Part shown: in pieces, positions 2,169-29,802 of the stretch
How positions within the stretch are numbered: the first letter of the stretch is position 1
Layout: each line of letters starts with the position of its first letter
From: Candidatus Saccharimonadales bacterium
GTDB lineage: Bacteria; Patescibacteriota; Saccharimonadia; Saccharimonadales; UBA4665
DNA: 55,372 nucleotides
Reading direction: 5' to 3'
NCBI GenBank assembly: GCA_041743525.1
Contig: JBGTMN010000035.1
Coordinates: forward strand, 1-55,372
Notes under the pieces: generated by a model
Database searches by the model: none
Told to the model about the DNA's origin: nothing
What the model saw: the letters and a program-made list of their open reading frames with translations, nothing else
Position numbers and translations under genes: made by a program

Positions 2169-2310
2169 GTTGTTTTTTGTTCCACTTTGTAATACGTTTT
2201 TGTTTTGCTTGGAAGTCTCTCAAGCTACATGTATCTACATCAAGCGTAACCGTTTTACTTATGAAATGCAAGTGTATTTAAAAGAAGTGCTAAAGTACTT
2301 GTGGATAACC

Positions 2311-3273
2311 CTAGGCAGTTCTTTGTGTCGGGTATTGCCGGCTTTCCAGAATGTGTTTTTCCCGGCGTTCGCCGAGCCAAAAACTGATGACGATAGCGAC
2401 GGCGCTGGTGTAGAGCGGCCAAAGCGCTAGAAGTTTATTCGTTGGTGGTGCAACGGTGCTGGAAATGCCCGTACCGGATGGTTGGCCGTTCACGATTGCA
2501 ACGACGCTTAAAAATGCGACGCGTCCGACAGCGTCGGTTGCCTGCATGGTAATGGGATAATTGCCTGGTTTTTTGTAAGTATGATTGGCTTTGAAGGGCG
2601 TGTTATTGTCTCTTGGAATAAGTTTGTTGTTATTATCGCCCCATTGGATATTTAGTGCGAACGGGGGCGTTCCCCCGAGTATGCTTATTGGAACACTGAG
2701 CTCTTTGCCGGGGAATATACCCCGGTACACACTGTCGGTACTCAGGAGTAATTGTGGGCCGCCAAAATTGAGTCCGGCTAACGGTGCACCTTGAGGCGGT
2801 GATGCATCATAAAATATATTGACTGGCGCCGAATCCGGACCGGGCTGATTCAATTCGTCGTATACTTTGGCGATAAGGGTGTTCGCTCCGTACATCAGGT
2901 CGATGTCGAACTTGAACGTACCGGAGTCGCTACAGGTGCCGGAACCGGCGAAGATGTCATTCTTATAAATCTCTACCAGCGTTTTGGCAGGGCAGGTACC
3001 TTCGACCGTGATGGGAGATTCCGTGAAACGCTGGCCGGAAGTTGGCGAGGTAATGGTAGCGGCGGTTTTCGGAGGTGGCCCGGGCATTCTGCCCGTGAGA
3101 CCGATAGATTCGGCCTGCGGAGGAGGACTGGCGGCCTGTACTGATGATATCATTAAAGCGACTCCGACCAGCACAAGAAGCACGGCTAATGGTCCGTACG
3201 ATGTAAATTCGTGGGGCCTGAGTTTGCCGCTGTGGCTGTGATGGATTATCTTGAAACGCTCAAGCATAAGCAT
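2311..3273 (-). CDS. Bitopic membrane protein with Ig-like and PKD-like domains
   Basis: N-terminal His-rich segment (HHSHSGKLRPHEFTSY) followed by a TM helix. PKD-type signature WGDNNN...HTYKKPGNYPITMQATDAVG. Second hydrophobic helix near the C-terminus (LLALWPLYTSAVAIVISFWL). Confidence 0.65.
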   Translation of the reverse strand: MLMLERFKIIHHSHSGKLRPHEFTSYGPLAVLLVLVGVALMISSVQAASPPPQAESIGLTGRMPGPPPKTAATITSPTSGQRFTESPITVEGTCPAKTLVEIYKNDIFAGSGTCSDSGTFKFDIDLMYGANTLIAKVYDELNQPGPDSAPVNIFYDASPPQGAPLAGLNFGGPQLLLSTDSVYRGIFPGKELSVPISILGGTPPFALNIQWGDNNNKLIPRDNNTPFKANHTYKKPGNYPITMQATDAVGRVAFLSVVAIVNGQPSGTGISSTVAPPTNKLLALWPLYTSAVAIVISFWLGERREKHILESRQYPTQRTA

Positions 3274-3344
3274 AGTATATCATCGTTGACCTGCATTCAC
3301 TTCTTCTGCTTCTTGAGTGCTACAAACAAGCTTGAAGAGTAAGA

Positions 3345-4361
3345 CTACTTGCGTTTGGACTTCGTGGCTTTGTTAATGACGCGCTGGTTGTGGTACTTGA
3401 AGAATGTCCGCGTTCCAAAGGCTCCGCCCACGAGGACGACGACCGCCGCTCCGATCAATCGGTATGGTACGACCCAGAAGGTGATAGTTTCGGTCATTTC
3501 CTTTTTGTCTGCGCCGTAAGTTAGTTTTAGGTCTGCGGTGTAGCGCCCGAACAGTTTTTTGGTACCGAGCACGCTGCTATCAAGCGGTTGATCGAATTTG
3601 CGGACACTTCCTGGCAAAATGTTGCGTGGAGGGAGGTTTACGTTGACTGCCGCAACTTTGTTTCCGAACATGTCGGTGATGACGACCTGGCCGGCGGGCT
3701 GATCGTGTATATTTCCGTCGTTTTTAATTCTTTGGGTAAAAGTGAGAGGGGTTGATTCGAATATAGTCCCAGTGCTACCATCTTTTTCTATTGTAAATGA
3801 TTCAATTCCCATGGACTCGTTTACGGGGCCATTGACGGTTATAAATACGAGAGCTCCGAGGCTCGCAGAAAGTGACACGCCGGTTCCTTCAAGTTCCGGA
3901 GGAGTGGCAGTGAACCTGACGACACCGTAATGTCCGCCAGGTGAGGCGTTAGCCGGTATTTTTATAGTGATAGGTAGGTTTTTAATTTCCTTTGGAACTA
4001 AGCGCATGGTTGCAAGCGGATTGACCCAGCCTTTAATAGAGTAGGGGTTGTCTCCATCATCTTCCATGAGTATTTTTGGCGTTCCGTCTTCTCCGGCTGC
4101 AATAAAGTCATTAATCTGAGCACTGACGATGAGTGGTGAGCTTGATATGTCACGAAGGCTAATCTGGGCCTTGATGGTTTGTCCGGGGTCGCCTTTAAGC
4201 GTTAGAACTGGTGGAGCGATTTCAAGAGCCTGGCCGCCGGTGTTGGTCGTAGGGGCAGGCGGCTTAGCTGTCGTTTGAGCTGTTGCAGGTTCGGCACTTG
4301 CGACGAAGGAGCAAAACACGATGCTGAAGCTGATAATTGCGAATTTATAACGGATATTCAT
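3345..4361 (-). CDS. DUF916/DUF3324-like (CscA-like) cell-surface protein with two beta-rich domains and a C-terminal TM anchor
   Basis: Signal peptide (FVASAEPATA). Motif ...IPANASPGGHYGVVRFTA... in the first half and ...NILPGSVRKF...FGRYTADLKLTYG in the second. C-terminal TM helix plus basic tail KATKSKRK. Size and topology match the WxL-operon partner proteins of Firmicutes (from memory, no HMM run). Confidence 0.5.
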   Translation of the reverse strand: MNIRYKFAIISFSIVFCSFVASAEPATAQTTAKPPAPTTNTGGQALEIAPPVLTLKGDPGQTIKAQISLRDISSSPLIVSAQINDFIAAGEDGTPKILMEDDGDNPYSIKGWVNPLATMRLVPKEIKNLPITIKIPANASPGGHYGVVRFTATPPELEGTGVSLSASLGALVFITVNGPVNESMGIESFTIEKDGSTGTIFESTPLTFTQRIKNDGNIHDQPAGQVVITDMFGNKVAAVNVNLPPRNILPGSVRKFDQPLDSSVLGTKKLFGRYTADLKLTYGADKKEMTETITFWVVPYRLIGAAVVVLVGGAFGTRTFFKYHNQRVINKATKSKRK

Positions 4362-5559: not shown

Positions 5560-6693
5560 TTAGAAGGTTGGCGTACAGATGTAGGTCAGGGTGGTGGTGT
5601 AGGTACCAGCGGGCTGGCTACCAGGTACGTTCACGATGTATGATGCGGTAAAGATCTGGGCATCGGAGCCACCAGCTCCACCAAATGCACTGTCTGCGAC
5701 ACTGTCACCGGTGATGTATTTAAATTCGTCGACGGTACCGTAATCGGTGGTAGCTTGCGCGCGGTAATTCGTCCCGTTGGAAGCGAGGCTTACTTCGGCA
5801 CCGATTGCCGGAGTTGATGTAAGTACGGTATTTTCTTTGAGGTTCATGCCGAACTGGCTAACACCGCGGATTCCGAGGGCTCTTGCGGCCATAGGGCTAA
5901 TCGTGTTGGATCCTGAAGTCAGCGTAGGCCCGTTGACGGTTATGACATAGCCACTGCCGGCATTGGTTGATGCAGCCATCTGTGATGATGCAGTCGCAGT
6001 GTCGGTAGGGGAGAAGAGCTGATTGAAGCTGATGACACCACTTGTCGCAGTTGCACAGTCAGGGACGCCGGCTGTCAGGCCGATAGTTGCACCTGCACAG
6101 AAGACGAGTGATTCGGGCATGGTGCCATCAAGGATAATCTGAGTAGCGGTGCTTGAAGTGACGGTTCCTGAGTCTACGATAGAACCCGATGTGTCAGTAG
6201 ATAAGTATGTTGTGATACGAACATGGAAAGTCTGGTTGGTAGTAGTTGGATTTACGATATTATCAAGGCGATAAGAAAGTACCGTATTTGTGTTAACATT
6301 GGCGGCCGTACGAGTCAGGTAGGGCATTCCGTTTGTCGCGTTTACTATGTTGAAACCGCTCGCACCAGATTCGGCTCCTAGGGCAGCAGAAGTCGTATTC
6401 AGTCCTGTCGGTGTATCGCAGTCCAAGCCGTTCGCGACGGCAGCCGCGGTCGTACAGTATTGGAATCGTATAGATCCGACATCGCTGCCGCCAGGCACTG
6501 TGAAGTTGAACACGTGGTTCACGGTGCCGCCGGGCATCGATCCGCCGTCGCCACCGGCTCCGGCCTGCAAGGTTAAGCTTCGCGTTGTTATTTGAGCCGC
6601 TGATGCGGTATCGGGCGGCAAGACTTGCAGCACTATGCTTGCGATCAGTGTCGCTACGGCGAATAGTCCAAAGAATGTATTTTTTTGTTTCAT
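5560..6693 (-). CDS. Secreted two-domain surface protein, WxL/SCPU-like C-terminal domain (paralog B)
   Basis: Signal peptide ...DTASAAQ. Collinear with paralog A (e.g. STATQIILDGTMPESLVFCAG..., QFGMNLKENT). Ends ...PAGTYTTTLTYICTPTF-stop. Confidence 0.75.
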   Translation of the reverse strand: MKQKNTFFGLFAVATLIASIVLQVLPPDTASAAQITTRSLTLQAGAGGDGGSMPGGTVNHVFNFTVPGGSDVGSIRFQYCTTAAAVANGLDCDTPTGLNTTSAALGAESGASGFNIVNATNGMPYLTRTAANVNTNTVLSYRLDNIVNPTTTNQTFHVRITTYLSTDTSGSIVDSGTVTSSTATQIILDGTMPESLVFCAGATIGLTAGVPDCATATSGVISFNQLFSPTDTATASSQMAASTNAGSGYVITVNGPTLTSGSNTISPMAARALGIRGVSQFGMNLKENTVLTSTPAIGAEVSLASNGTNYRAQATTDYGTVDEFKYITGDSVADSAFGGAGGSDAQIFTASYIVNVPGSQPAGTYTTTLTYICTPTF

Positions 6694-6819
6694 GATCTTT
6701 TGTTTTTAAGTTGTAAAGTTTTTTGTTTTTAGTTGTTTCATATGGAGCTTAACACAAGCGTTATAGCCTGGTCAATACATTTTACGATGCAACAATTACA
6801 ACATATCGGTTTTGGACAT

Positions 6820-7551
6820 CTAATAAGTACCGGTACAGATTACAGTCTGGTCTGCGGTATAGATTCCGCCAGGGGTGAGTCCGGTGACATTGACGATATA
6901 ACTGATGGTATAGGTAGTTACACCCGAACTGCCCGGTGCGGTTGCGATTGTTTCGCCATTTACGTATCGGTACTGATTTGATGTCGAATAATTCGAAGCG
7001 GCCGAGCCGATACCGAATATGCTGCGCTCGGGATTGGAGCCAAAAGATTCCGGCGATGTGTTCGCCACTAGATTTATGCCGAACTGTTCTATGCCGGTTT
7101 GAGAGTAGTCGGTAGTGCCCATAGCGGCGATCTTGTGCTGACCGTTTGTTGGCGGGTCACCGACTATCTGTACTGCGTAACCATAGCTGGTGTAATTTGA
7201 TACGGAAAAAGTGGACGTTGCCGTAGCGGCCGTCATCGGTGAAAATGTTCCGAAGTTGGCCTGTGAACCGTCGATGGTTATAGAAAGGGTAGGATCGGCA
7301 GTGGTTTGCGAGCCGCCGTCAGTCTGGAAATTTTCGGACGCCGAGTTACCGACTGCCGTGTCGCCAACAGACAAGCTCCCTCGATAGTTCGCGGAATTCG
7401 AGTTTATCAGACCGCCTGCGCCCAAAACGCTTTCATCAAATTTGAAATTTTGCGATTCGAGGGTCTGGGCGCTCGCTATGCCAATAAAAGTTGAGGCGCC
7501 GAATACCGCCACAAAACACCAGGCGACCCATTTTACCATCCACTTCGACAT
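6820..7551 (-). CDS. Secreted single-domain paralog of the WxL/SCPU-like family (first gene of the operon)
   Basis: Signal peptide ...GIASAQT. Shares QFGINLVANT, YTISYIVNVTG and the terminus GGIYTADQTVICTGTY-stop with the C-terminal halves of the two larger paralogs. Confidence 0.7.
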   Translation of the reverse strand: MSKWMVKWVAWCFVAVFGASTFIGIASAQTLESQNFKFDESVLGAGGLINSNSANYRGSLSVGDTAVGNSASENFQTDGGSQTTADPTLSITIDGSQANFGTFSPMTAATATSTFSVSNYTSYGYAVQIVGDPPTNGQHKIAAMGTTDYSQTGIEQFGINLVANTSPESFGSNPERSIFGIGSAASNYSTSNQYRYVNGETIATAPGSSGVTTYTISYIVNVTGLTPGGIYTADQTVICTGTY

Positions 7552-8914: not shown

Positions 8915-11524
<2,610 letters not shown>

Positions 11525-11528
<4 letters not shown>

Positions 11529-13024
11529 TTTTTGGCCTCTACCTTTTCGGTTTCGTTTTCGGATTCTGCAGGCTTGTCTTCGGGTTTTTCGCTCGGCTTG
11601 TCCGACAATGGCGTGGCGGCGTGTTTTTTGAGCAGTTCGGCTTCTATCCGATCGTAATCTTTCTCTTCTTTGGCTTCCGGGCTGACTTTGCGTACGGAGT
11701 CTTTTAGTCCGACGATATCCATTTCCATCTCGCCGCCGCTCAGCATAATCGTTTCCAGTAATAACTGCTGCTCGGTGAGCGAATGGCGTTCTTCGGGAGG
11801 TTGCTGCAATGCTTCGTATATGTATTTACCGATCGTCAGATCGATGGTTGTTTCTTTGGAAAGCTGTGAGCTAAAGTGCGAAAATTCTTCGGCCTGTTTG
11901 TATTTTGCCAGGGTTTTGAAGAGCGTAGACGACAATCTTTTTTGCCTGTTCGTCTGAGCCTGACCACCAACACGCGACACCGAAAGTCCGGCATTGACCG
12001 CCGGCCGTTTGCCTTGACGGAAAATCCCCAGGTCAAAGATTATCTGGCCGTCAGTAATAGACATGATGCTGGTAGAAAGGTATGCCGTAATGTCATCGTT
12101 TGGGGTTAGTACGACTGGCAGGCACGTGAGTGTTTTGCCGTTAGTTTTGAGTTTGCCGGCGCGCTCTAACAGGCTGGAATGGGCATAAAAAATGTCCCCC
12201 GGGTAGGAGTCGCGTCCAGGGTCGACCTCCTGTAGCAAAGATAGCTGTCGGTAGGCTTCGGCATGACTGGAAAGGTCATCGTACATAATCACGACGTCTT
12301 CGCCGGCGTACCACAAAAACTCGGCCATGGCGCAGGCGGCGTAGGGCGCCAGATAGGATTGAGTCAGGGAATCGAATATATCGGCCAGCACGACGATGGT
12401 ATGATCCATGGCGCCAGACTCTTTTAATTCGCTCAGGAGATGTTCGATATCGACTTTCCGCTTTCCGATAAGCACGTATACGACGATGCGGTCAGAGCCT
12501 TCCTGATTGGCACTGAGCTGACTTAAAAACGTACTTTTTCCAGATTTGCTGTCTCCGAGAATGGCAATACGTTGTCCAAGCACAATCGGAAAGAAACTGT
12601 CGACGGCTGTGACGCCGCTGGCCAGCTGTTCGTTTAACATGCTGCGGGCCATGATGCCGGGGGCCGCGTTAAATATACCGGAACTCTCGGCTGTTTTTAT
12701 CGCGCCCTTGCCGTCGAGTGGCTTGCCCATTGGCGACAGGACACGGCCGATCAGTTCTTTACCGACGGGAACGTTCAGCTCGTCGTGTTCTACGACGGCC
12801 AGCGTGCCGGGAGCCATTTTTTCGGAATCTATGTTGAACAACACGACGCGGTCTCCGTAAGCTTCACGCACGAAACCGCGCTGTCCGTCTTCGAACAAAA
12901 CCTGCGCGCCAAGACGCACGCCTTCCAGGCCTTTTACTTCTATAAGAAAGCTGTTGGCTGCGACGACTTCGCCGGTCAGATTATCGGCTTCTACTAGTCG
13001 TTGAAAAGTCTGATCATCAAACAC
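11525..13024 (-). CDS. atpA: F-type ATPase alpha subunit with charged C-terminal tail
   Basis: P-loop GDSKSGKST, SITDGQIIF and RPAVNAGLSVSRVGG (canonical alpha motifs). Start placed at GTG 13024, which overlaps the atpH stop (GTGTTTGA). The track start at 13120 would overlap atpH by about 100 nt. Confidence 0.85.
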
Positions 13025-14125: not shown

Positions 14126-15007
14126 CTAGAGCTTCGTCAGAATCATATAAATTGATAAAAAGGACGCCGCTAATATACCGAGCACCACGACGGACATCTG
14201 AACCATGTTCCGATACACCGCCGACTGAGACATTGGATTTCGGCCGACGGATATGATGCTACTGCGGATCATGGAGTAGATGATGCTCATAACAGCAATG
14301 ATTGTTACGATAAAGATACCCGAACTGATGATTATAGGTAGGGAATCGACTTTCTTGCCGGCCATGGCATTCGCAACACTTTGGATTGCCGTTGGTACGA
14401 CGGTTTTTTCGGGTTCGTTGTAATGATAGGCGACGCTTATGAGTGCTGGGACTTCGCCAATAGTGACAGTCTGTTCTTTTCCACTGTCGTCTTTATACGT
14501 TTGCTTGCTGTCTTTACTCATTCTCGGTTCGCCCTGGGCGATACCAATGACTTTGACGTTGTTGGTGGCTTTCATGCCAACACCTTTGATGGATGAAGCG
14601 GTTATCTGGTCGCCCTGCGAAATTTTGCCGTTGAGGTCGGATACTAATATCTGTACGATTCCACCGGTCGCTACCTGAACCTGATCGTCCTTGCCGTTCG
14701 ATAGAGAAAGCAGGGAATTCCCCTCGCTGATAACCACACCGTATATGCTGTCGGAGTTTTTCGAGGTGACTGCGCTGACATGATCCGAAGAATTGTCTTC
14801 CAAGCTAACTATTGAACCTATTGAAAGCTTATCTTTCGTTAAGAACCCTTGGGATATAGTGGTGACTGCATGTGCCGTTGAGGCAATCGATAAACATATC
14901 AGCACAGCCAGCATGACAAGGGATAAAATCGACTTGAATGAGCCGCGAATCGGCCAGGTTGTCGTCTGTGGCTGTTGATGAGTCTGAGTACTGCGCGCGT
15001 GCTTCAT
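14126..15007 (-). CDS. Membrane protein with an extracytoplasmic beta-rich domain fused to a C-terminal two-helix hairpin that resembles ATPase subunit c
   Basis: Its stop is 1 nt from the atpF start. N-terminal TM or signal anchor, about 190-aa S/G/V-rich domain, then ...IYSMIRSSIISVGRNPMSQSAVYRNMVQMSVVVLGILAASFLSIYMILTKL. Compare the c-subunit loop ...[27 protein letters not shown]... Confidence 0.6.
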   Translation of the reverse strand: MKHARSTQTHQQPQTTTWPIRGSFKSILSLVMLAVLICLSIASTAHAVTTISQGFLTKDKLSIGSIVSLEDNSSDHVSAVTSKNSDSIYGVVISEGNSLLSLSNGKDDQVQVATGGIVQILVSDLNGKISQGDQITASSIKGVGMKATNNVKVIGIAQGEPRMSKDSKQTYKDDSGKEQTVTIGEVPALISVAYHYNEPEKTVVPTAIQSVANAMAGKKVDSLPIIISSGIFIVTIIAVMSIIYSMIRSSIISVGRNPMSQSAVYRNMVQMSVVVLGILAASFLSIYMILTKL

Positions 15008-17829: not shown

Positions 17830-19200
17830 TTAGTTGAAAGATCGGCGGTAACCATTTAAAACCCAGAAAGTAGAGCCCGGGGAAGCCGAAGACCCGAAAG
17901 TTATGGTAGCACTGTTACTGAGTTTGACTGTCTGGCCGATCAATGCGCCTATCCCGCCGCTATTGTTCAGGCTGACTTGCGTCCAGCGGGCGTATAATGT
18001 GCTTTCCGGGGCTGATGCAGTATTTGAAATCAGGATAGTTTCGTCTTCACGGGAATTGTAAAGATCTATTCCTGTGACATTTGTGCAGTCCGGCGAACAG
18101 CTTGCTCGACTCCAGTATGTCAGTACTCTTGCTCCGGTTTTGGATGTATTGGCAACTATCCGGGCGCTATTACTTAAATGTACTTTCGCTCCATCCACCA
18201 TTATGTCGGGCATGGTCGAGCCGACCGTATTGGCTATGATTATTTCTGCGGAGTTCAGCATTTCTAAGTTGCCGGTTATCCAGACATTGCCATTTATGGT
18301 AACTTTGCAGCCTTTTTGTATGCTAACATTTCCGGTAATGACGACATTGGCTGGCCAGTTCCGTGTTCCGTTGTTGCTATTGCATGACGCGGCGCTGCTT
18401 GAAAGTGTGTTCACTGCGGCTGCTTTTTGGGCGTCACGGTTATGAGTAGGGAGCGGTTGCGCGCTAATCGACGCGCCGGTCTGCAATCCGGGGTTACTCA
18501 TTCGTGCGCCGTTCGTCTGGTTATTGGCCCGAACCGTACCGTATATCCATGCCGGGTTGGATATACTGATAGGCTGACCATTTTCTCCACCTCCGCACAG
18601 TCGCGGGTAAAGGCTGGTCGGAGGATTCGGGCAATTCTGATGCGCAACTTCGACTGTTATGGGATTGGTAGACAGCCCTATTTGAGCACTGTTCGACATG
18701 TTTATTTCGCCGTTGACTAATACGTCACCCCCGACAATCTTGGAACTGTTCGACATAAATAACCCACCGACCCCCGTCACGATACTGTAACCTTCGGAAA
18801 CCACCGGACGCAGGTGAGCGTTTATTGTGCGACTGGACGTTGGTATGGTTGCCGACGATGGCCTGTAAGTCCGTCCAGTGACCGTCAATGTTTGTGAGGT
18901 TGGCGTGGACTCGGTCATGTTCGCTTCAAAAGTCGTCCGGACATCATATTCATCGCGGAGCGTCATTTCTCCGGTTCCAGTCCAGCCTGCATTAACATTG
19001 ACCTGTTGTAAAGCAAAATCTATGCCGGCATCCGCCGCCAGCTGCGCATGGGTCATGTTCTGATCTTTGCCGGCGATGGTCAGGCTACTGACGGCCAGTT
19101 CCATAAAGAGGGCGGTGGTCAGAATCAGAAATGGCAAGACAATAATTATGGAAACAAGAGCTGATCCGCCGTTGTTTGAACGTATGCTTAGTTTCATCAA
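17830..19200 (-). CDS. PilX-like pilus-associated protein with beta-helix repeats
   Basis: N-terminus NNGGSALVSIIIVLPFLILTTALFMELAV (PilX N-terminal type, no cleavage motif). Last gene of a minor-pilin operon. ITGNV/INGNVWITGN repeats. Confidence 0.55.
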   Translation of the reverse strand: MMKLSIRSNNGGSALVSIIIVLPFLILTTALFMELAVSSLTIAGKDQNMTHAQLAADAGIDFALQQVNVNAGWTGTGEMTLRDEYDVRTTFEANMTESTPTSQTLTVTGRTYRPSSATIPTSSRTINAHLRPVVSEGYSIVTGVGGLFMSNSSKIVGGDVLVNGEINMSNSAQIGLSTNPITVEVAHQNCPNPPTSLYPRLCGGGENGQPISISNPAWIYGTVRANNQTNGARMSNPGLQTGASISAQPLPTHNRDAQKAAAVNTLSSSAASCNSNNGTRNWPANVVITGNVSIQKGCKVTINGNVWITGNLEMLNSAEIIIANTVGSTMPDIMVDGAKVHLSNSARIVANTSKTGARVLTYWSRASCSPDCTNVTGIDLYNSREDETILISNTASAPESTLYARWTQVSLNNSGGIGALIGQTVKLSNSATITFGSSASPGSTFWVLNGYRRSFN

Positions 19201-19877
19201 AATTGATTCCTTAGTGTTACGCGAATACTGTTGTCGAACGTGATGGGTGTTCCGAAAGTGTCCCGTTCCAAGCCGAGATTTATACGAATTGACCTGGCGG
19301 ATGTTGCAGTAGTGGTGGGGTTGTCGTCTTGATCGTATAACGTGAATGTGAACGATTTGCCATGTTCAGTCAATAGCCTGTCGGATGGACACGTTTCGGT
19401 GGCGGACGCAGGTGGACACGATGTACGCGCCTTGTTGGCTAACGCTGCGGTATTGGCTAGAGTCCGCTTATACAACCGTGTTTGCTGCCTGTAATATACC
19501 AGTTCGTTATTGTATGGATTCCCAGTGTCGGGATTGATGATGTACTGGCCCGATGCATCGACTGCTGGTACTGCGATGATTATCACGAAGTTGGTGTTGC
19601 TCGTGTTCCAGCCGCCTGGCATGTTGGGATCCGATACAGTGTTTGTCTGGCGAACCCCGGCGCCGTACCTTAGTTCTTCGACCGTGCTTCTCAGTAGATT
19701 TTGTGAAGTGACTGTCAGTTCGGTGCTTCTGCTATTACGAGTTACGAGTGCGAGATAGTTGCCAAAAACAGCTATCATGCTGACGGATATAATTCCCATC
19801 AGCGATATTACGACGAGTAATTCTACGATGGTAAATCCATTATCGCGATTAGTACTGTCCGACACCGAGCTCTCCAA
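19197..19877 (-). CDS. Prepilin-type minor pilin
   Basis: RDNG|FTIVELLVVISLMGII N-terminal cleavage/methylation motif. Confidence 0.75.
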   Translation of the reverse strand: MESSVSDSTNRDNGFTIVELLVVISLMGIISVSMIAVFGNYLALVTRNSRSTELTVTSQNLLRSTVEELRYGAGVRQTNTVSDPNMPGGWNTSNTNFVIIIAVPAVDASGQYIINPDTGNPYNNELVYYRQQTRLYKRTLANTAALANKARTSCPPASATETCPSDRLLTEHGKSFTFTLYDQDDNPTTTATSARSIRINLGLERDTFGTPITFDNSIRVTLRNQF

Positions 19878-20238
19878 GATATGTTACGTACGATTGAGTC
19901 CGCGGTTTGCCTTGTTCGTTGTAAGTAATGCTTAAGTGAATCCTTTTTATACCGCTACTGTAATTTGTGACGTTCTGCGTGGCGGAGCGGGGGCGTTTGA
20001 GATCGTCCGGTAATTCTGCCGTTATATTTGTGCTACCGCTAGAGACCGCCAGATAACCTCGGCTTCTGAGTGCTTCGACCTTTTGTTCGGCAAAAGCATT
20101 AGCCATAACTAAATTGCGGCTGCGCTGGGTCAAAAAAGAATGAGATACGACGATAGAATTTAAGCTCAGTATAAGAATGGCGCCGACTATAATCGTCACC
20201 AATAATTCGACCGTCATAAACCCTTTGCTGCTACCCAT
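19849..20238 (-). CDS. Prepilin-type minor pilin (PilV/GspI-like size)
   Basis: MGSSKG|FMTVELLVTIIVGAILIL motif, 129 aa. Confidence 0.7.
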   Translation of the reverse strand: MGSSKGFMTVELLVTIIVGAILILSLNSIVVSHSFLTQRSRNLVMANAFAEQKVEALRSRGYLAVSSGSTNITAELPDDLKRPRSATQNVTNYSSGIKRIHLSITYNEQGKPRTQSYVTYLGELGVGQY

Positions 20239-20334
20239 TACATATAATATATCACTTATGCTTTATTTTGGACTTCGTAACGTGCAATAAACTATTTTGA
20301 ATACGCTCATGGTTTTGTTATAGTGCCATCAGAT

Positions 20335-20766
20335 ATGAAAAAGAAAAATCCGTATACTACGGCAGTCGTGACGGGAAGTGGTAGATGGAGTTTATTCTCG
20401 TCAATAAAACGAAATCGAAAGTTACTGGCTTTGGCTGCGGTCATTCTAATCGGCGTATTGGGGGTTCTATCTTTCGTATATATTCAAGAGACTGCAAAAT
20501 CGGCAAGACTGAACAATGCCGTGCAGCAGGCCGACAAGGCCTCGAGTGGATTTCAGTCGAATGATGTAGGATATAGCTTCAAAATGCTGAATGAAGCAGT
20601 CAAGCTTGCCGAAAAAGATAATTGCAGTGAAGCCAGGGCTGTCTACAAGACGGTAAAAGAAAAGCCAAACGGTATACAATCCATAGATCTGCAAGTGTAT
20701 GAAAAAAGGATAGGAGATATATGTTCAGGTACCAAACCGCCGGCCATTCAATCTACCGAAGATTAG
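20335..20766 (+). CDS. Membrane-anchored hypothetical protein
   Basis: ATG at 20335 (MKKKNPY...) is preferred over the GTG at 20323. One TM helix (LLALAAVILIGVLGVLSFVYI). Confidence 0.5.
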   Translation: MKKKNPYTTAVVTGSGRWSLFSSIKRNRKLLALAAVILIGVLGVLSFVYIQETAKSARLNNAVQQADKASSGFQSNDVGYSFKMLNEAVKLAEKDNCSEARAVYKTVKEKPNGIQSIDLQVYEKRIGDICSGTKPPAIQSTED

Positions 20767-22820
20767 TCCGAGGAATAGGATTATCGGTCACAGCAGTAGT
20801 GCTCAGTCTATGCGTATCCGTTAGCACTTCTGCTATGTCCAACGTCGGTCCTGATCCTAATGACACGGGCTTAGCGCCCGGCGAAGTCATTGGCTACAAT
20901 ATATCTACGACTAATTATAGTAGTAATCCAAGTCCAGCCAGCACAGTCCCTATCTATTTCGATAACAATAGCGGAACCAAGCAGATTACTATTGTGGGCG
21001 GAGATTTATGTACTGATGCATTGCAATCTGCGCCCATTTCCGGCGGTAATTATAGAGACATCCAAAACGTTGCGAATATCGAGGGCAGTTCGGCTGCAAT
21101 GTTTTATTTGACAAATCCTTCAACCAGCGTTAATACGACTCCGGTTCAGTCAAGAGTAAGCAGTTCTGATACGTGCTACCGAGATACGATGACCTTGTCG
21201 TTTAATGCATCTAGTACCTTGCTATTTGATCCTGTCATTAATAAATACTATGCATATTTCACAGGAGAAGTCCTGGGCATAAGTTATGCCGAGAATCTGT
21301 ACAGCATAAGAGTAGAAGAAGTCACTGCTATCGTTGGTTACTCGGTAGCTAGCTCAGCAAGAAGTTTCGGAGTTGAAATGCAGTATCCATATTCAGGATA
21401 TAGAAACTACCGGTTTCCATTCGCTCCTGATTGTAGCGTGACGAATCCAAGCGGAACACCGGCGGTCGCGGAATTATTTGATCTGGACAACGGGGACCCG
21501 AGTGTTCAGAACGGTAACTTTATCAGGACATATGTTGAACAGACGGACACGAGCGGTAATGTATCCCGTATTCCTCTGCAGTTCACTTCTACGTCAAGTC
21601 CGACGAGCTCGAACGTTCCGGCAACTGGCGATAAAGATAGCGGATATGTCATCGATTCCGGTAACGGAACAAGTGCCTTTATCCAAATGACCGTATTCCC
21701 GAGTTATAAGTATCGATTGGGTATGGACGGAGTCTATTTCAGAAATTTCCTGCAGTTCAATTTGCCGTACGACAGCATATACCATGCCGTGACATGCCCC
21801 TCTCTACCACTTCCGCCACCACTCCCACCACCACCCCCTCCCGTAGACAAACCCTACCTCAGCGTCGTAGGCGGTGACGTCGTCACCGGCGCTAGTTTTT
21901 CAAATGACACTACCCCCTGTAGCGCGGCACCACATAATACGCTGGCCGGTGTCGTTGGCTGGAATAGCAATGCGAGTCCTTGGACGGGAAGTGGCGGTAC
22001 GTATGCCGTGTTGGCTTGGGGGCGAATCCAGGAGTTCGCCACGAACCAAGGAAATGCTACGAATGGAGGGTCGGCGACTTCACTGTCATTCTCGAACATC
22101 AACGACGGCGGCAGTGTGAATGCGGGTAACGGCATGTTCGGCGGCATGTTCGAATCGGCGCCGTGTATAGATTACTGGGGTTCTCGCCCGGCAACATCGA
22201 CTGGTACGGTTATTCCGGCCGGCACTTCAACAATTAGCCTGAACGGCATGAACGGCAATTACTTCGCAACGGGGCCGCTCACCATCAATACAAGTGCCAT
22301 AACTAACGGATCTACAGTAACTCTGTACGTCACTGGCAATGTAGCCATAACAGGCAACATAACTTATGCGGGTGCTGGCGCATGGAATAGTGTGAGCCAG
22401 ATACCATCACTCAAGATCGTATCCCTCGGTTCCATATTCATAGACGCTAACGTTGCCCAACTTGACGGTTTTTACGTGGCAGTCCCAACAGGGAATTACG
22501 CGACCGGTTCGACAGCTACCAGGACATATGCTAATCCCGGTACCGGAACGATCTCGACCTGTAGTAATGGCTTCAATGTCGTAGATCCATCGCAGTTGCC
22601 AGGAAGCGATATGATTAACCGGTGCAGGTTTATCCTGACGATAAACGGATCTTTCGCTGCCAACCAGGTTTGGCTATTACGAACCCACGGTTCATACACC
22701 GACGGAACTATAGGTACAGAGAAGTTCAAATACGGTCCTGAAGTATGGCTAGCTCCACCAAGCGGCGGCGCACTAGATCCCAATTACCGGTCTATTATTG
22801 GGCTTCCGCCGATACTTTAA
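20721..22820 (+). CDS. Large secreted protein with poly-proline linker and beta-helix C-terminal half (pilus-locus adhesin candidate)
   Basis: AGGAG lies 4 nt upstream of the ATG. Signal peptide ...SVSTSAMS. Linker LPLPPPLPPPPPPVDKP. Then SVVGGDVVTG... and ITGNITYAG repeats. Immediately upstream of pilM. Confidence 0.7.
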   Translation: MFRYQTAGHSIYRRLVRGIGLSVTAVVLSLCVSVSTSAMSNVGPDPNDTGLAPGEVIGYNISTTNYSSNPSPASTVPIYFDNNSGTKQITIVGGDLCTDALQSAPISGGNYRDIQNVANIEGSSAAMFYLTNPSTSVNTTPVQSRVSSSDTCYRDTMTLSFNASSTLLFDPVINKYYAYFTGEVLGISYAENLYSIRVEEVTAIVGYSVASSARSFGVEMQYPYSGYRNYRFPFAPDCSVTNPSGTPAVAELFDLDNGDPSVQNGNFIRTYVEQTDTSGNVSRIPLQFTSTSSPTSSNVPATGDKDSGYVIDSGNGTSAFIQMTVFPSYKYRLGMDGVYFRNFLQFNLPYDSIYHAVTCPSLPLPPPLPPPPPPVDKPYLSVVGGDVVTGASFSNDTTPCSAAPHNTLAGVVGWNSNASPWTGSGGTYAVLAWGRIQEFATNQGNATNGGSATSLSFSNINDGGSVNAGNGMFGGMFESAPCIDYWGSRPATSTGTVIPAGTSTISLNGMNGNYFATGPLTINTSAITNGSTVTLYVTGNVAITGNITYAGAGAWNSVSQIPSLKIVSLGSIFIDANVAQLDGFYVAVPTGNYATGSTATRTYANPGTGTISTCSNGFNVVDPSQLPGSDMINRCRFILTINGSFAANQVWLLRTHGSYTDGTIGTEKFKYGPEVWLAPPSGGALDPNYRSIIGLPPIL

Positions 22821-22888
22821 AGATCCTTTGGATAGAAGTAAAAAAGTTTGTACAAAAAAATAAATGCTTATGCTATACTTGGAGTAAT

Positions 22889-23929
22889 ATGAGTTTACTG
22901 AGTGGGGTATCACAATTTTTCGGCTTAGACATCGGCACAACCGCTGTCCGGTTAGTAGAGCTGCATGGCAGCGGGCCACAGAAGTCACTTGCTAAATATG
23001 CATTCGTACCAATAGATAGTAAGATTGCGCTCAGCGATTCTAAGCCCGACCAGGCGAAGCTCGCTGAAGCAATCAAAGATTTAGTTGACCAGTCCAGAAT
23101 ACTGACTCGCAATGTCGCGGTCGGTGTACCTTCGCTGAGGGTTTTTACGACTGTCGCAGATATAGACAAAGTACCGCACGGGGAACTGGACAGAACCATA
23201 CGTTACCAGGCAGATTCTTTGATTCCGACTCCCGTAGAAGAGTCCAAGATCGACTGGGCGTTACTCGGAGATTCCCCGAAAGAAGCCGGTAAGATCGAAG
23301 TTTTGCTGAGTAGTGTTCCAAATGCTTTTATAGAACAGCGGCTCGATATGCTGGAAAGCATCGGACTCAATGTTATAGCGTTTGAGCCGGAAAATCTGGC
23401 ACTTGCACGCTCCCTGGTAGATCCACAAGCAACGACTCCTCAGGTTGTTATAGACATAGGTCGTAAGGGTACGGACATTATTATCGTTATGAATGGCGCT
23501 CCGCGATTGATGCGGTCAATACCGACCGGCATGGAAGGGATCATCAAGTCTGCCGCACAAAATCTAAATGTAGACGAAAGCCAAGCCGAGCAATTTGTGC
23601 TTAAATTCGGACTCAGTAAGGACAAACTCGAAGGTCAAGTATACCAGGCGGTGGTAGGGACTGTAGATATACTTACCAATGAAATCGATAAATCCATAAA
23701 GTTCTTCCAAGGTAGATACACCGATACAAAATTAGATCGTATTATCGTCACCGGTGGCGCATCGGTGCTTCCCGAATATCCGTTGCACCTTGCAAACAAA
23801 TTCGGCATGAACGTCGAAATTGGTAACGCCTGGCATAATGTAGCATTTTCGGCGAGTCGCCAGAATGAACTTGCGGCATTGTCTAATCAGTTTGGCGTTG
23901 CAGTCGGACTGGCGGAGAGAGAAGAATGA
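22889..23929 (+). CDS. pilM: Type IV pilus assembly protein PilM
   Basis: GGAG lies 4 nt upstream of ATG 22889. MSLLSGVSQFFGLDIGTTAVRLVEL is a typical PilM/actin-like N-terminus. The track start at 22745 would overlap the upstream gene. Confidence 0.85.
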   Translation: MSLLSGVSQFFGLDIGTTAVRLVELHGSGPQKSLAKYAFVPIDSKIALSDSKPDQAKLAEAIKDLVDQSRILTRNVAVGVPSLRVFTTVADIDKVPHGELDRTIRYQADSLIPTPVEESKIDWALLGDSPKEAGKIEVLLSSVPNAFIEQRLDMLESIGLNVIAFEPENLALARSLVDPQATTPQVVIDIGRKGTDIIIVMNGAPRLMRSIPTGMEGIIKSAAQNLNVDESQAEQFVLKFGLSKDKLEGQVYQAVVGTVDILTNEIDKSIKFFQGRYTDTKLDRIIVTGGASVLPEYPLHLANKFGMNVEIGNAWHNVAFSASRQNELAALSNQFGVAVGLAEREE

Positions 23930-24615
23930 TTCAGTTTAATTTATTACCAGATGTAAAGATCGCTTATGTCAAGGCGCAGCGAACAAAACGGCTCGTCATG
24001 GGTTCGGCACTTATAGCGACGGCAGCAAGCCTTGCGGTCTTTGTACTGTTGTTTGCAACTGTACACATTGTTCAAAGTAAGAATTTGGGCGACCTGGACG
24101 CCGATATCAAAAAATACTCCCAAGAACTTAAGGATATCCCGGATCTAAACAAGATATTGACGATCCAAAACCAACTTAGTTCTGTGAACGCAATCCATGA
24201 CGTAAAACCGGTCGCATCACGAGTGTTCGTGATACTGCAACAGGTGACGCCCGCCGACGTTACGATCAGCGATTATAGTGTTGATTACGACAACAAAGTC
24301 GTATCTATTAAGGGAGATGCTCCAGGATTGGACAAAGTAAACCTGTATGTCGATACACTCAAATTTGCGAAATTCAAAACAGAGAATATAGAGGCTAAAA
24401 ATGCATTCAGGGAGATTGTATTAAGCCAGTTCGCTCGAGGCGAGAAAGGGGCTACATACGAAATCACATTAACTTATGACGATGCCCTGTTCGTTAACGA
24501 TCAAAAGATAGAATTGATCATACCTAAGACCGTAACGACACGCTCGGTTACCGAACAACCTTCTGATATTTTCAGAAAAACTGAATCTAACACTAACACT
24601 AACGGAACTAACTAG
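23926..24615 (+). CDS. pilN: PilN-like pilus assembly protein
   Basis: MIQFNLLPD... N-terminus, a single TM helix, and a 4-nt overlap with pilM. Confidence 0.7.
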   Translation: MIQFNLLPDVKIAYVKAQRTKRLVMGSALIATAASLAVFVLLFATVHIVQSKNLGDLDADIKKYSQELKDIPDLNKILTIQNQLSSVNAIHDVKPVASRVFVILQQVTPADVTISDYSVDYDNKVVSIKGDAPGLDKVNLYVDTLKFAKFKTENIEAKNAFREIVLSQFARGEKGATYEITLTYDDALFVNDQKIELIIPKTVTTRSVTEQPSDIFRKTESNTNTNGTN

Positions 24616-24623
24616 GTAACGAC

Positions 24624-25298
24624 ATGGCTCAAGGTAGAATTTCACTGAAACAAATCGGTCTGGATAAGACAAATTCCCGAATTCTTATCGTGACTGCAAT
24701 TGCATCGTTTCTGGTCGTTTTCTTTCTGGTCGGTTCTTATTCGTTACTACAGCAGCTGTCATACAATAACCGTGTCATTGGAGTAAAGAAGACCGCAGTT
24801 AAGCAGCTCGAGACAAATATAGAAGCTACGGAAAGTTTGATTACATCTTACGAAGCTTTCGCAAGTGCCCCAGTAAATATCATATCCGGAAGTCCGAACG
24901 GGAGTGGAAAACAAGATGGCTCGAACGCAAAGATCGTACTTGATGCATTGCCTAGCAAATATGACTTCCCAGCGCTTACAACGAGTTTGGAAAGACTTGC
25001 TCTTGAGCAGCGGGCTACGATACGTACAATTGGCGGATCGGATGACGAGATAGCTCAAGGCGCATCCAATTCTGAGGGCGACCCTCAGGCTGTCGATGTC
25101 CCATTCGAAATAACGGTAGAAGGGGATTATGCCACTGTTCAGAAAGTGGTAGAGGTTATGGAGCGATCGATACGGCCTTTCCATATAAGCACCCTTGGCA
25201 TATCGGGAAACCAGCAGGATCTAACGCTTAAGGTTGCTGGAAAGACGTATTATCAACCAGAAAAGACTTTAAATATTAAGATGGAAACGGTCAAATGA
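24624..25298 (+). CDS. pilO: PilO-like pilus assembly protein
   Basis: Single TM helix followed by a coiled-coil segment. Position after pilN. Confidence 0.5.
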   Translation: MAQGRISLKQIGLDKTNSRILIVTAIASFLVVFFLVGSYSLLQQLSYNNRVIGVKKTAVKQLETNIEATESLITSYEAFASAPVNIISGSPNGSGKQDGSNAKIVLDALPSKYDFPALTTSLERLALEQRATIRTIGGSDDEIAQGASNSEGDPQAVDVPFEITVEGDYATVQKVVEVMERSIRPFHISTLGISGNQQDLTLKVAGKTYYQPEKTLNIKMETVK

Positions 25299-25543
25299 AA
25301 CAAAAAGATATAGCCCTCATTGCCATTATCATTATATTTAGCGGTATGATATCATTTTTTGCTGGCCGGTACCTATTCGCGACACCAGATAACAGGCAGG
25401 TAAAAGCAGAGGTCGTTGATGCGATTTCGACAGAGTTTATTCAGCCGAGTACCAAATATTTCAATGAACGATCGGTAAATCCCACACAACTTATTCAAAT
25501 CGGAGACGGCTCCAATGTCACGCCATTTAGCGGTCGTAACTAA
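25295..25543 (+). CDS. Small membrane-anchored protein of the pilus operon
   Basis: 82 aa, one TM helix (IALIAIIIIFSGMISFFAG), 4-nt overlap with the preceding gene. Confidence 0.5.
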   Translation: MKQKDIALIAIIIIFSGMISFFAGRYLFATPDNRQVKAEVVDAISTEFIQPSTKYFNERSVNPTQLIQIGDGSNVTPFSGRN

Positions 25544-25560
25544 AGAGCAGGGCATCGAGT

Positions 25561-27375
25561 ATGAATGTATTATCGGCAGCAGCCCAAAAACAGGTTGAAG
25601 ACGATCTCGTTTCTTCTGGCGTATTAAAAGCCGACATATTAAAAACGCTCCGTGAAAAATCGGAAAAAGAAAAAACACCGTTACTCGGTCTGCTCGTGCA
25701 CGAGGGAAACGTCAGTAATGAGCAGCTGACGAAAGTTGTAGCCCATGCAAATAAAGTTCCATACGTAAATCTTAGTTCCGCGAAAGTAGACGAAAAAGTC
25801 CTGAAGCTTTTGCCACAGGATATAGCGGAACGCTACATGGCGGTGCCACTCGGTGAAATGCAACACCGGCTGGTTATTGCGATGCTCGACGCCGATAACG
25901 TCCAAGCCGTTGACTTCCTCAGCAATAAGATTGCCCGTCCGCTCAAAGTATATGCGGCGAGCGAAGAGGGTATACGCCAGGTTTTAAAGCAATATCAGTC
26001 TGACGGATCTTCTGATGTCGCAAGCGCAATTACGGCACTTGGCGGTGACCTTTCGAGCGCGAACATGGGGCTGAGCGACATAGCTCAGGGCCGTGAAAAA
26101 GAAGCTATCAATAAAAACGTCAAGACGCTTGTTCAGGATTCTCCGATCAGCAAGGCGCTGTCTACGATTTTGGAATTCGCAGCAAAAAACCACGCCAGTG
26201 ACGTTCATATCGAACCGATGCAGGAATTTTTAAAGATCCGTTGTCGAATAGACGGCGTATTGCGGGAAATAATGAAACTTCCCAAAAGTACCGAACCGGC
26301 TTTGATATCCCGTATCAAAATTCTGTCCAACCTGAAAATCGACGAACACCGTGTACCGCAGGATGGTGAATTTAGCATCATAGTAGCCAATAAGGATATC
26401 GACCTTCGAATCGCCATTTCCCCCGTCGTATGGGGCGAGCAGGTGGTTATTCGGCTACTGGACAAGTCAGGCACCAGCCTCCGATTGGAAGACATGGGAT
26501 ATGCGGGCAGATCGCTCCGCACTATCAAAGAAGGATTAAAACAGACAAATGGTATGATCCTGACCAGTGGTCCGACCGGTTCTGGTAAGTCGACTTCCTT
26601 GTACGCTCTACTTCAGGAAGTAAAAGACGATGGTGTAAACATCGTAACTTTGGAAGATCCGGTGGAATACAAAATGGCCGGAGTCAATCAGATTCAGGTC
26701 AATGCCGATGTCGGGCTGACGTTCGCGACCGGACTTCGCAGTATTCTCCGTCAGGACCCCGACATTATCATGGTCGGAGAAATTCGTGACAAAGAAACCG
26801 CCGAGCTGGCGGTGCAGGCGGCATTGACCGGTCACCTCGTGTTCTCGACGCTTCACACCAACTCGGCGGCTGGAATTCTTCCCCGTTTGCTGGACATGGG
26901 GATTGAGCCGTTCTTGATAGCCAGTACGGTACATACGGTCATCGGGCAAAGGCTGGTTCGCCGTAATGCCGTCGATGCCGAATCGTACGAATCCGGCGCA
27001 GTAGAGACTGAAGCTATTAGAAAGACCTTAGGTCATTTTCTGCCTGAATCCGAGGCGCTGCGCGCAAAAGCCGCCGAAGATTTTGGATACGAAACCTTGC
27101 CACTGAAGGGTGATAGTGCTTATACTTTAAGTAAGGGCATAGACAGTCCAAGCGCACCAGGTGGCTATAAAGGCAGGATGGGAATCTACGAGGTTTTCAG
27201 TGTTGATGAAAAGATACAGGATCTGATTCTGAAACGTTCCACAAGTGCCGAAATTCAAAAAGAGGCGCAGAAGCAAGGAATGGTAACGATGCGCGAAGAC
27301 GGATATTTAAAAGCTCTCGCCGGAAAAACAACCCTTACCGAAATTAACCGGGTAGCGGCCACGGACATCGCATAA
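25561..27375 (+). CDS. pilB: Type IV pilus assembly ATPase PilB (GspE family)
   Basis: GspE N-terminal domain, Walker A GPTGSGKST, LRQDPDIIMVGEIRD, GHLVFSTLHTNSA. Confidence 0.9.
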   Translation: MNVLSAAAQKQVEDDLVSSGVLKADILKTLREKSEKEKTPLLGLLVHEGNVSNEQLTKVVAHANKVPYVNLSSAKVDEKVLKLLPQDIAERYMAVPLGEMQHRLVIAMLDADNVQAVDFLSNKIARPLKVYAASEEGIRQVLKQYQSDGSSDVASAITALGGDLSSANMGLSDIAQGREKEAINKNVKTLVQDSPISKALSTILEFAAKNHASDVHIEPMQEFLKIRCRIDGVLREIMKLPKSTEPALISRIKILSNLKIDEHRVPQDGEFSIIVANKDIDLRIAISPVVWGEQVVIRLLDKSGTSLRLEDMGYAGRSLRTIKEGLKQTNGMILTSGPTGSGKSTSLYALLQEVKDDGVNIVTLEDPVEYKMAGVNQIQVNADVGLTFATGLRSILRQDPDIIMVGEIRDKETAELAVQAALTGHLVFSTLHTNSAAGILPRLLDMGIEPFLIASTVHTVIGQRLVRRNAVDAESYESGAVETEAIRKTLGHFLPESEALRAKAAEDFGYETLPLKGDSAYTLSKGIDSPSAPGGYKGRMGIYEVFSVDEKIQDLILKRSTSAEIQKEAQKQGMVTMREDGYLKALAGKTTLTEINRVAATDIA

Positions 27376-27405
27376 TGACCTTAAACAAGCAGGAGACAAA
27401 TTGAT

Positions 27406-28470: not shown

Positions 28471-28521
28471 TATGTTTGAATATAAAATTTCACCAGTAAA
28501 TGGTGCGAACGGAGATAAGTC

Positions 28522-29736: not shown

Positions 29737-29802
29737 TCGTGTGACGTCATTCACATGATACTGACTGTAGAAAAATGGGTTGCTGAGCTGTGGATAAAAC
29801 GC

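Follow-up and report, generated by a model that had tools for sequence, protein, structure and literature searches.

A contig of 55,372 nucleotides from a Candidatus Saccharimonadales bacterium (JBGTMN010000035.1), referred to over its whole length as the window, carries an F1-type ATPase operon in which a 293-residue protein, here called X, takes the place of subunit c. We propose that X is a derivative of subunit c and acts as the membrane subunit of a second F1-type ATPase, one that has no a subunit and would couple ATP hydrolysis to a structure at the cell surface. We assign this reading as a whole a probability of about 0.55. For its core, namely that X is derived from subunit c and belongs to a second, a-less ATPase, our confidence is high.

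Reconstructions of the candidate phyla radiation (CPR) count alpha, beta and gamma genes as ATP synthase. Here, they are genes of an enzyme without subunit a and without a proton-binding c, which would be unable to make or use a gradient. In the following, we describe the operon and its distribution, the origin of the hairpin of X, the relation of the operon to canonical F1Fo, and the surface structures on which such an enzyme might act.

An F1-type operon headed by X

Seven closely packed genes on the minus strand, in the order X-b-delta-alpha-gamma-beta-epsilon, form the operon (Table 1). An initial annotation, made by a model from the sequence alone, had already proposed this order, and both the open reading frames and the Pfam and NCBIfam assignments bear it out. 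It had also placed the stop codon of X a single nucleotide from the start of b, which the codons confirm: TAG at 14128-14126 is followed by one base and then by ATG at 14124. The remaining genes overlap by 4-11 nt, including an overlap of 8 nt between delta and alpha, whose true start is the GTG at 13024. Searches with tblastn for subunits a and c, using the E. coli a subunit and four c subunits as queries, returned nothing in the window (best E 0.1) and nothing in the 1.31 Mb of 81 related loci. Likewise, the region upstream of X contains neither atpB nor atpE, as the annotation had stated; the divergent 33-residue reading frame that it mentioned there is, however, not incidental but a conserved mini-prepilin gene, to which we return below.

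Pfam and NCBIfam recognise delta, alpha, gamma, beta and epsilon. The b-like protein has weak NCBIfam matches only, to models of subunits B and B' (E 0.006-0.009), while its position and architecture fit a b subunit, and its gene is present in 79 of the 81 Saccharibacteria loci. Every F1 subunit of the window operon scores under its NCBIfam equivalog cut-off: alpha reaches 385 bits (TIGR00962, cut-off 484), beta 444 bits (TIGR01039, cut-off 463) and gamma 75 bits (TIGR01146, cut-off 194; 97.8 bits for PF00231), and delta, at 26.8 bits for PF00213, is above the Pfam gathering score and below the equivalog cut-offs. The catalytic motifs of beta are intact (GGAGVGKT for Walker A, GERIREG with the catalytic glutamate), and alpha has both its P-loop (GDSKSGKS) and the arginine finger (SVSRVG). 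Walker A, catalytic glutamate and arginine finger are kept throughout, both in the window and in all related loci that hold the respective genes. Epsilon consists of the beta-sandwich domain alone, without the C-terminal helical domain, and its relatives are of similar size (82-92 residues). In a search of cluster representatives, the nearest full-length beta subunits outside the family share 40-48% identity with that of the window; canonical betas fall into few large clusters in such a search, and it did not reach the canonical betas of Saccharibacteria. As a separate observation, beta and alpha end in low-complexity tails of about 50 residues rich in proline, glutamate and lysine (9178-9330 and 11525-11690, minus strand), which are shorter or absent in the related locus L001 (beta 476 residues, alpha 492 residues).

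The scores below the equivalog cut-offs would fit a functionless remnant of an atp operon, decaying after the loss of a and c. The probability of this explanation appears negligible to us: the frames are intact, neighbouring genes overlap, the catalytic residues are kept everywhere and X has 32 invariant columns. The operon is also widespread. Clustered at 90% identity, the X family of Saccharibacteria comprises at least 1385 clusters, which have no informative names (a few have labels of the 'hypothetical protein' type), and a sister family outside Saccharibacteria comprises 548 clusters. When one genome per GTDB species was scanned, 176 species were found to encode X, all of them Saccharibacteria.

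The gene order X-b-delta-alpha-gamma-beta-epsilon is found in all 81 Saccharibacteria loci. X lies directly before b in 79 of them and in five of six loci from other CPR bacteria that show the upstream genes, so that the fusion gene does precede atpF in relatives, a point that the initial annotation had left to be checked. Each of these six loci (L082, L084-L088) encodes an unannotated protein of 255-290 residues followed by b-like, delta, alpha, gamma, beta and short epsilon subunits; L086 shows only the C-terminal 112 residues of its X homolog, and L084 and L087 carry a few interleaved extra genes. None of the six has a gene of the PF00119 (a subunit) or PF00137 (c subunit) family.

Three details of these loci deserve mention. 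In L084, from Levybacteria, two PF05635 '23S rRNA-intervening sequence protein' genes (5861-6238 and 6774-7373) flank delta inside the operon. In L087, two near-identical pilin-like genes (N_methyl and Laminin_G_3 domains) and a BrnT/CopG toxin-antitoxin pair are inserted between X and b (1293-4210), a further association of an X-type operon with prepilin-type proteins. Lastly, an identical beta subunit (P0335) occurs in L082 and in L083, which is labelled Saccharimonadales, and the surroundings of L082 nearly equal those of L084, the contig from Levybacteria. One of the two records may carry a wrong taxonomic label.

The hairpin of X and subunit c

X has no Pfam or NCBIfam match above threshold. 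In an AlphaFold2 model based on 113 homologs (mean pLDDT 76), which supersedes a poorer model from 25 sequences (pLDDT 56), an N-terminal hydrophobic helix is followed by a beta domain, a short helix (residues 206-216) and two long hairpin helices (222-254 and 260-292, pLDDT about 75-94). The N-terminal helix ends in AHA/VT, and that of relatives in VYA/Q or VHA/Q; therefore, it is probably a cleaved Sec signal peptide. With signal peptide and ectodomain preceding the first hairpin helix, the N-terminus of the mature protein is predicted to lie outside, the loop inside and the C-terminus outside, which is the topology of subunit c. The initial annotation had described the N-terminal 220 or so residues as an extracytoplasmic beta-rich domain behind a signal anchor; the model agrees with the domain, and it is the anchor that should be replaced by a probable cleaved signal peptide. 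The C-terminal sequence that the annotation quoted for X is exact.

X resembles subunit c in its predicted two-helix hairpin, its predicted outward N-terminus, its cytoplasmic R-(Q/N)-P loop and the position of its gene directly upstream of atpF. It differs in the ectodomain of about 175 residues and the signal peptide in front of the hairpin, in the absence of the ion-site aspartate or glutamate and, in the window family, in the absence of the GxGxGxG motif. Since the window family is too uniform for a strong direct comparison with subunit c (effective number of sequences, Neff, 1.6), divergent relatives were needed. These became accessible through a divergent clade of beta subunits, whose profile retrieved betas named Levybacteria, Roizmanbacteria, WWE3 and 'Patescibacteria group'. 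The X homologs of these organisms are clearly related to the window family, with an hhalign probability of 99.3% (E 1.3e-20 over 208 columns) between the two families and a pairwise BLASTP E of 5e-9.

The hairpins of these relatives read '...FGRvakTGVEALGRNPLAsRmIQ...N...', which is much closer to the 'AVEGIARQPEA' of c subunits. Six of them, aligned to c subunits with hhalign, give a probability of 86% (P 4.8e-6, score 33.0, 70 aligned columns); 200 column shuffles score no higher than 18.8, and the reversed alignment scores 15.3. With 21 relatives, P is 5.5e-5. A profile of the relatives' hairpins, searched against 177,635 PDB sequences, finds eight matches, of which seven are c subunits (best 2wie_A, E 0.0057); the c2 subunit of A. 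woodii (4bem) is among the matches. One relative matches PF00137 at E 0.004, the best score being 17.7 bits against a gathering score of 24. NCBIfam 'subunit C' models are among the weak matches of six out of ten relatives, always on the hairpin, and one relative is named 'membrane subunit c' by JGI. Because the relatives bridge the gap in this way, matching the window family on one side and c subunits on the other, descent of the X hairpin from subunit c is supported, at scores short of the curated PF00137 threshold.

In the window family, G255, R256, N257, P258, Q261, A263, R266, Q270 and S272 are all fixed and belong to the invariant columns mentioned above. The GRNP loop is invariant in the 113 aligned Saccharibacteria homologs, and GR(N/Q)P is found in 240 of 240 members of both X families. 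By contrast, none of these 240 members has an aspartate or glutamate anywhere from position +10 after the loop proline to the C-terminus. The carboxylate of subunit c lies at +18, in a column that aligns to isoleucine or valine in X. Most Saccharibacteria X proteins have an aspartate at +9, beside R266 at the cytoplasmic end of the helix, a residue distinct from the ion site. In helix 1 of the window family, SxxxSxxxSxxxS stands in place of GxGxGxG; this serine stripe (S241/S245/S249/S253) is present in 101 of 120 homologs, while the relatives outside Saccharibacteria keep scattered glycines only, for example in 'AFGIGFIFFG'. Both differences from subunit c that the initial annotation had pointed out, the missing glycine motif and the missing acidic residue in helix 2, are confirmed for the window family. 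A c hairpin that has lost its carboxylate and gained an ectodomain represents a new evolutionary state of a protein that ranks among the most conserved in membranes.

The case against this ancestry, and with it against our reading as a whole, starts from the window family itself. Aligned on its own to eight c subunits, it reaches an hhalign P of 0.05, albeit in the register proposed by the initial annotation; its profile has no match among PDB sequences at E up to 10; and PF00137 is absent among the weak Pfam matches of its individual members. The link between the window family and subunit c is, accordingly, a transitive one that runs through intermediate sequences. If only the window protein and its close family are considered, the hairpin might be an unrelated two-helix anchor that shares the RNP motif by chance, in a surface protein that merely happens to be encoded upstream of ATPase genes, an alternative that the annotation itself had named. 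We regard this as very improbable. The profile evidence from the relatives points to c, the loop is invariant, the gap to b is a single nucleotide, and the position before b is as good as fixed in Saccharibacteria and in the other CPR loci. The alignment to c subunits that the annotation had drawn, and the first of its two ideas, in which a degenerate c-like membrane subunit serves F1, b and delta, are therefore upheld through intermediates, even though the comparison of residues 220-293 with c subunits that it had suggested is negative for the window family alone.

The beta domain in front of the hairpin has a different set of structural relatives. A Foldseek search of the PDB matches it to the capsid of the Borrelia phage BB1 (8pkh, E 7e-6), to the C-terminal fragment of phi29 gp12 (3gqh) and to cement proteins of T1, Pam3, HFTV1 and TW1. 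In BFVD, it matches a preneck appendage barrel (E 8e-9) as well as ends of tail proteins and DUF2190 proteins. PF23982 and PF09956, both weak matches in Pfam, are in line with such a phage-type fold. The predicted ectodomain thus resembles the cement, decoration and appendage-barrel domains of phages. As Foldseek results for the whole model are dominated by the ectodomain, they are silent on the hairpin.

A probable second ATPase beside canonical F1Fo

In published gene counts for complete Saccharimonadales genomes, based on KEGG assignments, Ca. Saccharimonas aalborgensis, GWC2_44_17 and Ca. Mycosynbacter amalyticus each have one a, one b and one c gene, together with two alpha, two beta and two gamma genes; TM7x and RAAC3 have one of each (PMC12592800, Table S5). 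The doubling of alpha, beta and gamma next to single a, b and c genes is shown there without comment. Southlakia epibionticum, likewise, has a canonical atpI-B-E-F-H-A-G-D-C set (SEML1_0349-0358) and no second one. The second alpha, beta and gamma set of the complete relatives is very probably the X-type operon, since M. amalyticus is the organism for which ATPase genes next to a pilus (pam) operon have been reported. The X-type operon would then encode a paralogous second enzyme and not a decayed ATP synthase.

Compared with the canonical F1Fo operon (atpIBEFHAGDC, as in S. epibionticum), the X-type operon has the same b-delta-alpha-gamma-beta-epsilon order and equally intact catalytic motifs. 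It differs in that atpI and atpB are missing, c is replaced by X and epsilon lacks its C-terminal domain, in that alpha, beta and gamma stay below the equivalog cut-offs, and in that complete relatives very probably have it alongside a true F1Fo. Without an a subunit, the X-type enzyme would be unable to act as a chemiosmotic ATP synthase or ion pump.

This would be different if X joined a canonical Fo encoded elsewhere in the genome, either in a mixed c-ring or together with the canonical a subunit, so that the operon would still belong to an ion-translocating enzyme. Mixed rings that include carboxylate-free hairpins do exist, as with c1 of Acetobacterium woodii and the V-type proteolipids. 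The one canonical a and one canonical c gene elsewhere in complete relatives, and the A. woodii c2 subunit among the PDB matches, also speak for this possibility. We nevertheless consider it improbable. The operon has its own complete set of b, delta, alpha, gamma, beta and epsilon, with a beta whose identity to other beta subunits is only about 40%, which favours a separate complex. Not one of the 240 X proteins keeps the carboxylate, and in several CAILAD01 bins alpha, beta and gamma are listed but none of a, b and c, an absence that is soft because these are metagenome-assembled genomes (PMC12592800, Table S5).

Surface structures and the possible work of X

F1-like motors at the cell surface had been known only from mycoplasmas. 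In addition to a true F1Fo, these bacteria have Type 2 and Type 3 gene clusters for a further F1-like ATPase that lacks a and c (Beven et al., 2012, PMC3369863; Berlureau et al., 2026, PMC12994834). One protein of these clusters combines a signal peptide and an ectodomain with two transmembrane (TM) helices at the C-terminus, and the clusters are required for a surface system (PMC12994834). These F1-like X0 ATPases supply energy to the MIB-MIP system and to the gliding legs, and have been described as mycoplasma-specific. The X-type operon is similar to the mycoplasma F1-like X0/G1 clusters in having alpha-, beta-, gamma- and epsilon-like genes and no a or c, in its probable coexistence with F1Fo as judged from the published counts in relatives, in being genomically tied to a surface machine, and in encoding a protein with signal peptide, ectodomain and two TM helices; here, MMCAP2_0577 and MMOB1650 are likened to X by their described architecture. 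Unlike the mycoplasma clusters, it keeps b and delta and has neither the 12-TM protein nor the small cytoplasmic protein. The NCBIfam models MSC_0618 and MSC_0619 score 380 and 261 against cut-offs of 570 and 520, and MMOB1660 and MMOB1670 score 330 and 315 against cut-offs of 850 and 600. Moreover, the window beta aligns with ordinary F1 betas at 340-395 bits and with the mycoplasma G1-ATPase beta at 286 bits. As judged from gene content and these scores, the CPR enzyme falls outside the mycoplasma families, its beta being nearer to ordinary F1 betas. The evidence supports it as a variant of the non-chemiosmotic F1-like ATPases whose membrane part is a c-subunit fusion. This extends the idea of such motors to another very large group of bacteria that are reduced and depend on hosts, and traces the membrane part of one of them to subunit c for the first time.

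The surface structure encoded next to X in Saccharibacteria is the Pam pilus. From work on Ca. Mycosynbacter amalyticus, this pilus has been described as a filament built by donor-strand exchange, without dedicated envelope, assembly or energy machinery; its subunits have Sec signal peptides, and their polymerisation is proposed to take place outside the membrane (Troman et al., 2026, bioRxiv 10.64898/2026.03.03.709456). The same study independently reports that the pam operon always comes with ATP synthase genes and reads this link as coupling to ATP production; the words ATPase, rotary and subunit c are absent from its text. In the window, epsilon is followed on the other strand by the gene of a 346-residue membrane protein and then by genes for proteins of 243, 377, 370, 338 and 320 residues, an order kept wherever the contig is long enough. 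The 346-residue protein is encoded in 60 of the 81 loci, that is, in every locus reaching that far, and PamT in 57. The system corresponds to that of Troman et al. in having PamT, two Pam pilins, a PamC/PamD-like chaperone and PamR directly downstream, with ATP-synthase-like genes alongside. X is not a named Pam component there; the 'tail fibre-like' node of that study may be X or the 346-residue protein.

In F1Fo, the RQP loops of the c-ring are bound by gamma and epsilon. By analogy, X might assemble into a c-ring-like oligomer that carries no ions and is gripped by gamma-epsilon through its invariant GRNP loops, while b-delta would hold alpha3beta3. ATP hydrolysis could then turn or strain the X ring relative to the stalk, work that the ectodomains, arranged as a crown, could pass on to a surface structure. 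Given the parallel with the mycoplasma F1-like X0 ATPases and the fixed linkage to pam, the target in Saccharibacteria might lie at the Pam pilus base, with PamR, the chaperones and the 346-residue protein as candidates and with effects on assembly, anchoring or movement of the pilus. That X works as a rotor driving a surface process appears possible to us, with the odds slightly against it. A fuller picture, in which the F-type motor has been turned inside out in CPR bacteria, so that an ion-free c-ring with an extracellular crown is rotated by F1 torque and rotates, extends or loads the Pam pilus or other surface structures, is more speculative still, and we would sooner bet against it. If it were true, many annotated 'ATP synthase' genes of Saccharimonadia, Microgenomatia, WWE3 and related classes would not be bioenergetic, and part of the puzzle of ATP synthases in CPR bacteria without a respiratory chain would dissolve. 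A surface-facing F1-like motor offers a concrete and testable alternative energy source for the Pam pilus.

The absence of an a subunit as a fixed partner for a rotating ring could also mean that nothing rotates. X might be a static membrane platform on which the F1-like head performs conformational work on secreted pilins, such as unfolding, handover or gating, in the manner of FliI/FliJ in type III export. The fold of the ectodomain is that of phage cement and appendage domains, which are static binding modules, and Troman et al. found no dedicated Pam assembly machine, as would suit such a role. Yet the full rotary set of gamma, epsilon, delta and b stalk is kept under selection, and a cytoplasmic unfoldase would have no obvious substrate among Pam subunits that carry Sec signal peptides and polymerise outside. 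We therefore consider a static platform unlikely.

Further points count against an a-less ATPase that works on a surface structure through X. Without an a subunit, the b stalk might co-rotate with the ring. We infer the X oligomer, its rotation and its contact with the Pam pilus. The equation of the second alpha, beta and gamma set of the complete relatives with the X-type operon is drawn from synteny, and the genome of the window itself is known from the 55-kb contig only. Finally, none of the six loci from outside Saccharibacteria has pam genes within 8-10 kb; the pilus is therefore not a universal partner.

A link between an F-type ATPase and pili has also been described in Omnitrophota, where a 'symbiotic', non-respiratory F-type ATPase adjoins type-4a pilus genes and has a beta subunit that clusters with those of Ca. 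Saccharimonadia; the passages of the article on this ATPase make no mention of its membrane subunit (Seymour et al., 2023, PMC10066038). The window is similar in that its complete type IV pilus cluster (17830-34554), with PilM, PilB, PilT, PilC and PilD, starts 2.8 kb from X. It is dissimilar in that the constant neighbor is the Pam pilus: only about nine of the 81 loci have type IV pilus genes within 10 kb, and we have therefore rejected their adjacency as a constant feature. In the literature, we found no text on the membrane subunit of the CPR F1-like ATPase, its ancestry in subunit c, the missing a subunit or its CPR-wide spread.

Table 1. Features of the window discussed in the text (TM, transmembrane; AF2, AlphaFold2).
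Feature	Positions	Strand	Remarks
X, 293 residues	14126-15007	-	signal peptide, extracytoplasmic beta domain, C-terminal c-type hairpin
X residues 1-46	14870-15007	-	N-terminal hydrophobic helix (AF2 23-43) ending AHA/VT
X residues 47-205	14393-14869	-	beta-rich ectodomain (Foldseek; AF2 beta domain 51-191)
X residues 222-293	14129-14344	-	two-helix hairpin without ion-binding carboxylate (AF2; homology via CPR relatives)
X loop G255-R256-N257-P258	14234-14245	-	equivalent of the R-Q/N-P loop of subunit c
b-like peripheral-stalk subunit, 213 residues	13483-14124	-	one N-terminal TM helix, long coiled coil
delta/OSCP-like, 158 residues	13017-13493	-	PF00213
F1 alpha-like, 499 residues from GTG 13024	11525-13024	-	PF00006, PF00306
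F1 gamma-like, 286 residues	10668-11528	-	PF00231, TIGR01146
F1 beta-like, catalytic, 497 residues	9178-10671	-	TIGR01039; Pro/Glu/Lys-rich C-terminal tail
epsilon-like, 88 residues	8915-9181	-	PF02823 over residues 12-86
Mini-prepilin, 33 residues	15126-15227	+	MVKVCDQRG/YTVLELAIVIV..., class-III signal motif; AAGGAG 9 nt before ATG
Type-II membrane protein, 346 residues	7835-8875	+	between ATPase and pam operons; cytoplasmic N-terminus, one TM helix
PamT, tip pilin, 243 residues	6820-7551	-	NF058579, 265.5 bits (cut-off 240)
Pam pilin (PamA/B/E class), 377 residues	5560-6693	-	NF058581 Pam pilin C domain, 142.6 bits (cut-off 55)
Pam pilin (PamA/B/E class), 370 residues	4365-5477	-	NF058581, 139.2 bits (cut-off 55)
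Probable PamC/PamD-type membrane-anchored chaperone, 338 residues	3345-4361	-	by architecture only: signal peptide, beta domains, C-terminal TM helix
PamR, RbmA-like pilus anchor, 320 residues	2311-3273	-	NF058578, 332.6 bits (cut-off 300)
Histidine kinase, 796 residues	15429-17819	+	several PAS domains; between ATPase operon and type IV pilus cluster
PilM	22745-23929		type IV pilus cluster
PilB	25561-27375		type IV pilus cluster
PilT	27406-28470		type IV pilus cluster
PilC	28522-29736		type IV pilus cluster
Pilin	29872-30363		type IV pilus cluster
Prepilin peptidase PilD	30408-31301		type IV pilus cluster
PilX_N and N_methyl minor pilins			type IV pilus cluster

Other genes around the operon

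The mini-prepilin gene is divergent from X, has a good ribosome-binding site and encodes only 24 residues after the cleavage glycine. An equivalent reading frame (G/FTLLEL..., with 23-28 residues after the glycine) lies divergently upstream of X in 61-63 of the 81 loci, at a distance of about 95-250 bp and, in one locus, of 423 bp; in L001, a gene of 40 codons with a PF07963 match occupies this place. As predicted from its sequence, the processed product would be a single N-methylated membrane helix with a conserved Glu5. On the other side of the operon, the 346-residue protein has no Pfam or PDB sequence match, and the repeat-rich region after its TM helix reads by eye as a beta-helix. Within the pam operon, the 338-residue protein has no family match and is a probable PamC/PamD-type chaperone by comparison with the description in Troman et al. 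(2026). After PamR comes a gene that runs off the start of the window (1-2217, minus strand); it encodes a large secreted protein with a signal peptide (...SPAQA/AAG) and no fewer than about 720 residues.

Together, the pam operon and the type IV pilus cluster form a 35-kb island of surface-appendage genes. The histidine kinase encoded between X and the type IV pilus genes was rejected as a part of the module: L001 has a similar kinase and three response regulators at the same place, most related loci are without it, and it is conserved in only two or three. Elsewhere in the window, a protein of 405 residues (42592-43809, plus strand) matches the C-terminal part of Pup ligase (PF03136, E 1e-13), which is unexpected in a Saccharibacterium.

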